Positions 19,744 to 20,225 of a DNA stretch of 64,000 bases are shown here, in pieces (the stretch's first letter is position 1; each line of letters begins with the position of its first letter). Location of the stretch: NCBI RefSeq assembly GCF_055900595.2, contig NZ_CM148325.1. One strand, given 5' to 3'. The translations under genes were made by a program, and so were the position numbers. The notes under the pieces were generated by a model. It searched no databases and was not told where the DNA came from. It saw only the letters and a list, made by a program, of their open reading frames with translations.

Positions 19744-20225
19744 AATCGTATGCCTTTATGATTGGTCTGTAGATAGTGTAGAGCAGAAAAGAAAAGGCGG
19801 AGTCAGAACAGGATGAAAATCGGAGGATAAAAAATCAGTTCAAGGATGGGGAATTCAGTGGTTACCAGTAAGGGGGGCAACGGTACACTCGGTTTTTATC
19901 GGCATAAATGATCACTGAAAGCACTTAAGCATTATTTTACTGTGGATTCAGCGTGGCAGCGAACATTAACGGTAGTCAGGGACAAACTTCAAAAGAGCAT
20001 ATGCATCATATTCAACAAAGCAATGGCATCCTCAATGTACGATTCCAATTATATTAAATAATTCCTATGAGGTTATCTGTGATAGGCCTCCATGTCTGTA
20101 TTTCCTACTTATGTAGGAAATTCTGCACAAAACATTTATTATAATCCTATTCAATAATGACAATGATGTCATTATTATATTTCAACACTAGAGAGTGTCG
20201 TTGGTGTTTAATGGGGGAAGGTGAG

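Follow-up and report, generated by a model that had tools for sequence, protein, structure and literature searches.

The perfect palindrome upstream of yegR is very probably the EvgA box of the yegR promoter, and as such would serve as the operator for an EvgA dimer. A previous, sequence-only reading of the same DNA had taken the palindrome for a possible binding site of a dimeric regulator and had left that regulator unnamed. The regulator is EvgA, and the reading of the palindrome as a dimer site is supported by its match to the EvgA motif, by its conservation between strains, and by a review that names yegR as EvgA-bound (PMC8147483).

The window, by which we mean the whole 64,000-nucleotide stretch of DNA that was analysed, is from E. 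coli, with the gene order gatD, gatR, yegS, a 482-bp spacer, yegR, the CyaR sRNA and trhP/yegQ; coordinates of the features discussed here are collected in the table. Orthologues of yegR are annotated either as 'protein YegR' or as 'lipoprotein YegR', and an NCBIfam search gave no significant family for YegR. A P2-like prophage remnant (a late control D fragment and ogrK) that lies between yegR and yegQ in K-12 (L001, 3223-4181) is absent from the corresponding part of the window (20544-21062).

Table. Positions, in window coordinates, of the yegR palindrome, the predicted promoter elements and the neighbouring genes.
Feature	Position	Strand	Description
gatR (DeoR-family)	17983-18762	+	Intact in the window; the K-12 copy is truncated by an IS3 element
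yegS	18844-19743	-	Divergent from yegR
yegS-yegR spacer	19744-20225		482 bp, G+C 38%
Full perfect palindrome, window lineage	20100-20108 / 20113-20121	.	Arms 100% complementary, 4-nt loop
EvgA box	20102..20119	.	TTCCTACT-TA-TGTAGGAA; 7-bp arms TTCCTAC/GTAGGAA, 4 bp apart
Predicted -10 hexamer of yegR	20140..20145	+	TATAAT, perfect; 20 nt downstream of the box; invariant in 11 strains
Second perfect palindrome	20153-20176		AATAATGACA-ATGA-TGTCATTATT, 10-bp arms; over the predicted yegR start
yegR	20226..20543	+	105 aa, signal peptide, lipobox LMSGC; open reading frame, and RefSeq CDS in an identical strain
CyaR/RyeE sRNA	20895-20980	-	Full-length Rfam match, 99.8 bits; between yegR and trhP/yegQ
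466-aa open reading frame by trhP	22630-24030	-	HEAT repeat domain-containing protein in the annotation of an identical strain

The inverted repeat tttcctac-ttat-gtaggaaa can be read off the sequence exactly where it was originally described, at 20101-20120, and its distance from the yegR start, given earlier as about 105 bp, is borne out by the 105 nt that separate the palindrome from the ATG at 20226-20228. A repeat finder extended the arms by one pair beyond those first noted, to 9 bp (ATTTCCTAC / GTAGGAAAT). When the spacer was shuffled 5000 times, 1.1% of the shuffles contained a perfect repeat of the kind first described (8-bp arms, 4-nt loop), and 8.3% contained one with 8-bp arms and any loop of 0-10 nt. 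The whole 64-kb window contains four repeats whose arms measure 9 bp and whose loop measures 4 nt, against 0.1 expected. Taken by itself the yegR palindrome is therefore only mildly unusual, and its significance rests on the motif match and on the conservation.

The 18-bp core of the repeat, TTCCTACTTATGTAGGAA (20102-20119), was compared with the consensus of the EvgA box, which we take to be the 18-bp dyad TTCYTACA-NN-TGTARGAA (TTCYTACANNTGTARGAA); this consensus, which is said to go back to Masuda and Church in 2003 and to Itou and colleagues in 2009, was checked on K-12 DNA. Core and consensus differ by a single mismatch, with agreement at 15 of the 16 specified positions. A scan of the 64-kb window that allowed up to three mismatches returned 20102-20119 as the sole match, and none of 100 shuffles of the window yielded a match with one mismatch or fewer. 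Comparison with known transcription-factor motifs, proposed by the sequence-only reading as a way to check its suggestion, thus leads to the EvgA box with one mismatch, a match as good as which was seen in 0 of the 100 shuffled windows.

The consensus was tested on K-12 DNA in which EvgA sites are expected. Across 34 kb around evgAS and ydeO-ydeP it gave seven matches, where about 0.6 would be expected, and six of these seven are intergenic, preceding emrK/evgA, frc, yfdX (twice), safA and ydeP. Strain M160133 has a yegS-yegR spacer that is 100% identical to that of the window, and its evgA and evgS genes are intact and accompanied by EvgA boxes of their own; the only four matches in 49 kb around evgAS of this strain are the two yfdX sites and the sites of frc and emrK/evgA. 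The promoters listed as EvgA-bound in a review are those of emrK/evgA, frc, yfdX, safA and ydeP, together with those of yegR and gadE, and the yegR promoter is described there as strongly bound (PMC8147483). No EvgA-box match at three or fewer mismatches was found upstream of gadE in the hdeD-gadE region of K-12, even though the review lists gadE as EvgA-bound, and the consensus pattern must therefore miss some (weaker) EvgA sites.

The site was also scored with a half-site matrix built from six K-12 EvgA sites (12 half-sites), in which the spacer was ignored, the yegR site was left out and three pseudocount settings were used. The yegR site scored 19.4-20.6 bits with this matrix, within the 17-27 bits of the training sites, and with the runner-up in the window at 11-12 bits it stands 7-9 bits clear at the top of the 64 kb. 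The maximum over a shuffled window reached the half-site score of yegR in 1-4 of 500 shuffles. This matrix is not fully independent of the EvgA-box consensus, since its training sites were found with that consensus. When all 18 columns of the same six K-12 sites, including those of the spacer, were put into one matrix, the yegR site reached only 10.7 bits and did not rise above shuffles. At position 8 the yegR box carries T, where all but one of the 12 training half-sites have A, and its spacer dinucleotide, TA, is absent from the training sites. We judge that the low 18-column score reflects over-fitting of the spacer and position-8 columns from 12 sequences, and for this reason the 18-column matrix was replaced by the half-site matrix.

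Conservation across strains, the other check put forward in the sequence-only reading, came out positive: divergent E. coli strains share an unchanged core, next to an upstream flank that is variable. In an alignment of 11 E. coli strains, picked across the range of identity, the 20 bases TTCCTACTTATGTAGGAAAT are invariant, as is the block AACATTTATTATAATCCTATTCAA, which contains TATAAT, and the 60 nt just upstream of the box show heavy substitution and gaps. The yegR promoter of K-12 carries the same 18 bp as the window's box. The base at 20101 is T in the window's lineage and A in all ten of the other strains aligned, where the eighth arm pair is broken as a result; the left arm accordingly reads ATTTCCTAC in the window and AATTCCTAC in the version common among strains. 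With A at this position in ten other strains, the conserved repeat is 7+4+7, TTCCTAC-TTAT-GTAGGAA, which is the 18-bp box and not a longer stem. The eighth and ninth arm pairs, found in the window's lineage alone, lie outside the conserved box.

Among 5426 complete E. coli genomes, the 56-nt stretch from the box to TATAAT was found in 5417, being identical in 4669 records, and evgA was found in 5398. The spacer as a whole behaves quite differently from this stretch: in megablast comparisons most E. coli genomes align only to its yegS-proximal 124 nt, which marks the spacer as fast-evolving, and at least 80% of it is covered in only 376 of the 5426. Set against the K-12 spacer, that of the window has an extra 62 bp (about 19875-19936) and an extra 8 bp (19947-19954), with many substitutions besides. 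The yegS-yegR spacer is unusually variable except in the core of the yegR promoter. A search for the exact 18-mer in species-representative genomes gave six unrelated matches, by a rough estimate about the number expected by chance, and so carries no cross-species information; the same scan returned no E. coli representative.

Several individual records deserve mention in their own right. In strain WP3-S18-ESBL-07 (L014, NZ_AP022030.1, 1-356) an IS1 element lies within the TATAAT of yegR and parts the EvgA box from the gene. The evgA match in strain NCM3722 (H96, NZ_CP011495.1, 3723658-3725049) is broken into two parts, and the annotation places an IS1-family transposase there, which suggests that evgA is disrupted by IS1 in this strain. 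A metagenome bin labelled 'Citrobacter sp.' (L016, 8709-10340), also returned by the scan for the exact 18-mer, has an E. coli-like yegS-yegR locus with an identical box, and a phage-type integrase beside yegR.

The window belongs to a lineage of 21 among about 5400 genomes, defined by identity of at least 99%. The second palindrome, at 20153-20176, is perfect in this lineage only; in its place, AATTATAATAATCATGCCATTATT or a sequence close to it is found in K-12 and nine other strains. It is conceivable, though unlikely, that the A-to-T change at 20101, which lengthens each arm of the dyad from 7 to 9 bp, has together with this new palindrome rewired the control of yegR in the small lineage. 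Were that so, EvgA might bind more tightly, or a different repressor might have gained an operator.

The TATAAT downstream of the box is predicted to be the -10 element of yegR. The three hexamers that lie 16-18 nt upstream of it, GGAAAT, GAAATT and AAATTC, match the -35 sequence TTGACA at only 0-1 of six positions, and a promoter consensus scan found no complete plus-strand promoter at the TATAAT site. A transcript directed by this element would be expected to start at about 20152-20153, 7-8 nt past TATAAT. If this predicted start holds, the centre of the dyad, at 20110.5, would be placed at -41.5 to -42.5, the geometry of a class II activator. When the sequences 20 nt past the box were inspected by eye in other EvgA promoters, emrK had TTTAGT, and ydeP, safA, yfdX and frc had poor matches to a -10 only; with no evident -10 in common at that spacing, a class II geometry shared by these promoters did not emerge, and at yegR the geometry is one that we infer.

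The sensor kinase EvgS becomes active in mild acid and phosphorylates EvgA, a response regulator of the NarL/FixJ type. We propose that control of yegR would begin with these events, the activation of EvgS by mild acid and the phosphorylation of EvgA by EvgS, and that an EvgA dimer would then bind the two inverted half-sites TTCCTAC(T/A). The box so occupied, about 41.5-42.5 bp upstream of the predicted start, would stand in place of the missing -35. From this position EvgA may recruit sigma-70 RNA polymerase as a class II activator, so that yegR, which encodes a small lipoprotein and belongs to the acid-response regulon, would be turned on.

Other explanations of the repeat were weighed against an EvgA operator. 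It is extremely improbable that the repeat acts not as a protein site but as a hairpin in RNA transcribed across the spacer, where it might serve as a terminator, as an attenuator or to stabilise the RNA. As RNA the sequence folds to a 9-bp stem (-12.4 kcal/mol, z = -4.2 against shuffles), but such a fold arises from any perfect palindrome. Promoter-like sites on the minus strand at 20201-20174 and 20172-20144 could read through the repeat towards yegS; against this, yegS and yegR are divergent, so that no gene ends in the spacer, and on the yegR side the conserved TATAAT comes after the repeat, which is hence outside the predicted transcript. The eighth pair is broken without compensation in 10 of the 11 strains, and the invariant block fits an 18-bp protein motif, not a stem. 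The T-run of a terminator is missing after the repeat on both strands and a terminator scan returned 0; on these grounds, and with a stem extension that is not kept across strains, a terminator or hairpin was discarded as an explanation.

A second kind of explanation keeps the protein site but assigns it to, or shares it with, a different regulator, either another member of the NarL/FixJ family (NarL/NarP, RcsB or GadE) or a nucleoid protein, for instance H-NS, acting as a silencer of the AT-rich spacer. We regard this as very unlikely, although the poor yegR score in the full 18-column EvgA matrix would be in keeping with it. NarL and NarP bind a 7-2-7 site, TACYYMT-NN-AKRRGTA, and TACTTAT at 20106-20112 fits the heptamer TACYYMT, but the partner would be AGGAAAT, which agrees with AKRRGTA at 4 of 7 positions. 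The RcsAB box has its half-sites in the opposite order, which counts against RcsB. Both the arm sequence and the 4-bp spacing of the repeat are exactly those of published EvgA targets, and yegR is induced along with EvgA target genes (PMC5811628). As for H-NS, the yegR-yegS spacer is among the H-NS-associated regions of a SELEX survey (PMC3946193) and H-NS probably does silence this spacer, but silencing of that kind does not need an exact 18-bp dyad, nor would such a dyad be expected to be conserved for it. Scarcely credible, finally, is a functionless palindrome thrown up by chance in AT-rich intergenic DNA. It is true that 8% of spacer shuffles hold a perfect 8-bp-arm repeat with a loop of 0-10 nt, and that the longer palindrome at 20153-20176 is unconserved, so that such repeats come and go here; yet 20 consecutive invariant bases adjoin a highly variable flank in the 11 strains, the 56-mer from box to TATAAT is present in 5417 of 5426 genomes, and to these are added the motif match and the published binding of EvgA. 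The conserved footprint effectively refutes a chance origin.

The reading of the palindrome as the EvgA operator of yegR can be set beside published expression data for its K-12 orthologue. On exposure to glutathione yegR was up 11.9-fold along with yfdX, ydeO and emrK, and frc also rose with these genes (PMC5811628). Across 1575 conditions, the expression of yegR correlates with that of yfdE (PMC8265036). The EvgA operator of yegR is an already known and ordinary regulatory element: the link between EvgA and yegR is known in K-12, and is here seen to persist, base for base, both in a divergent lineage and in almost every sequenced E. coli. The result supplies the name of the regulator for the palindrome and has little significance beyond annotation; the site does not bear on the role of YegR in acid resistance.

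Among known systems, the sites of NarL and NarP resemble the yegR box in being inverted heptamer pairs bound by proteins of the same family, and TACTTAT stands at the centre of the yegR dyad. They differ from it in that the symmetric partner is missing at yegR (4/7) and in that the conserved block there is centred on the EvgA dyad and not on the 7-2-7 axis. BvgA, which binds the virulence promoters of Bordetella, is presumably the closest relative of EvgA, with a heptad that we take to be TTTCCTA. BvgA sites likewise consist of an inverted heptad pair to which a phosphorylated NarL/FixJ-family regulator binds as a dimer, and the heptad TTTCCTA also forms part of the left arm in the window (20101-20107), but organism and regulon are different, and Bordetella promoters have cooperative arrays of multiple sites. 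The EvgA boxes of K-12 at frc (TTCTTACAACTGTAAGAA), yfdX, safA-ydeO, ydeP and emrK/evgA have the same 18-bp dyad as yegR, with TTCYTAC/GTARGAA arms 4 bp apart. Unlike these, the yegR box has T rather than A at position 8 of the left half, and TA as its central dinucleotide, and in the window's lineage its dyad gains two more pairs to give 9-bp arms. From box to start codon the distance is 106 bp at yegR, compared with roughly 112-250 bp for the remaining EvgA genes. Like each of the K-12 EvgA boxes, the yegR box is an intergenic element in front of an acid-response gene, and EvgAS is encoded in the same genome.
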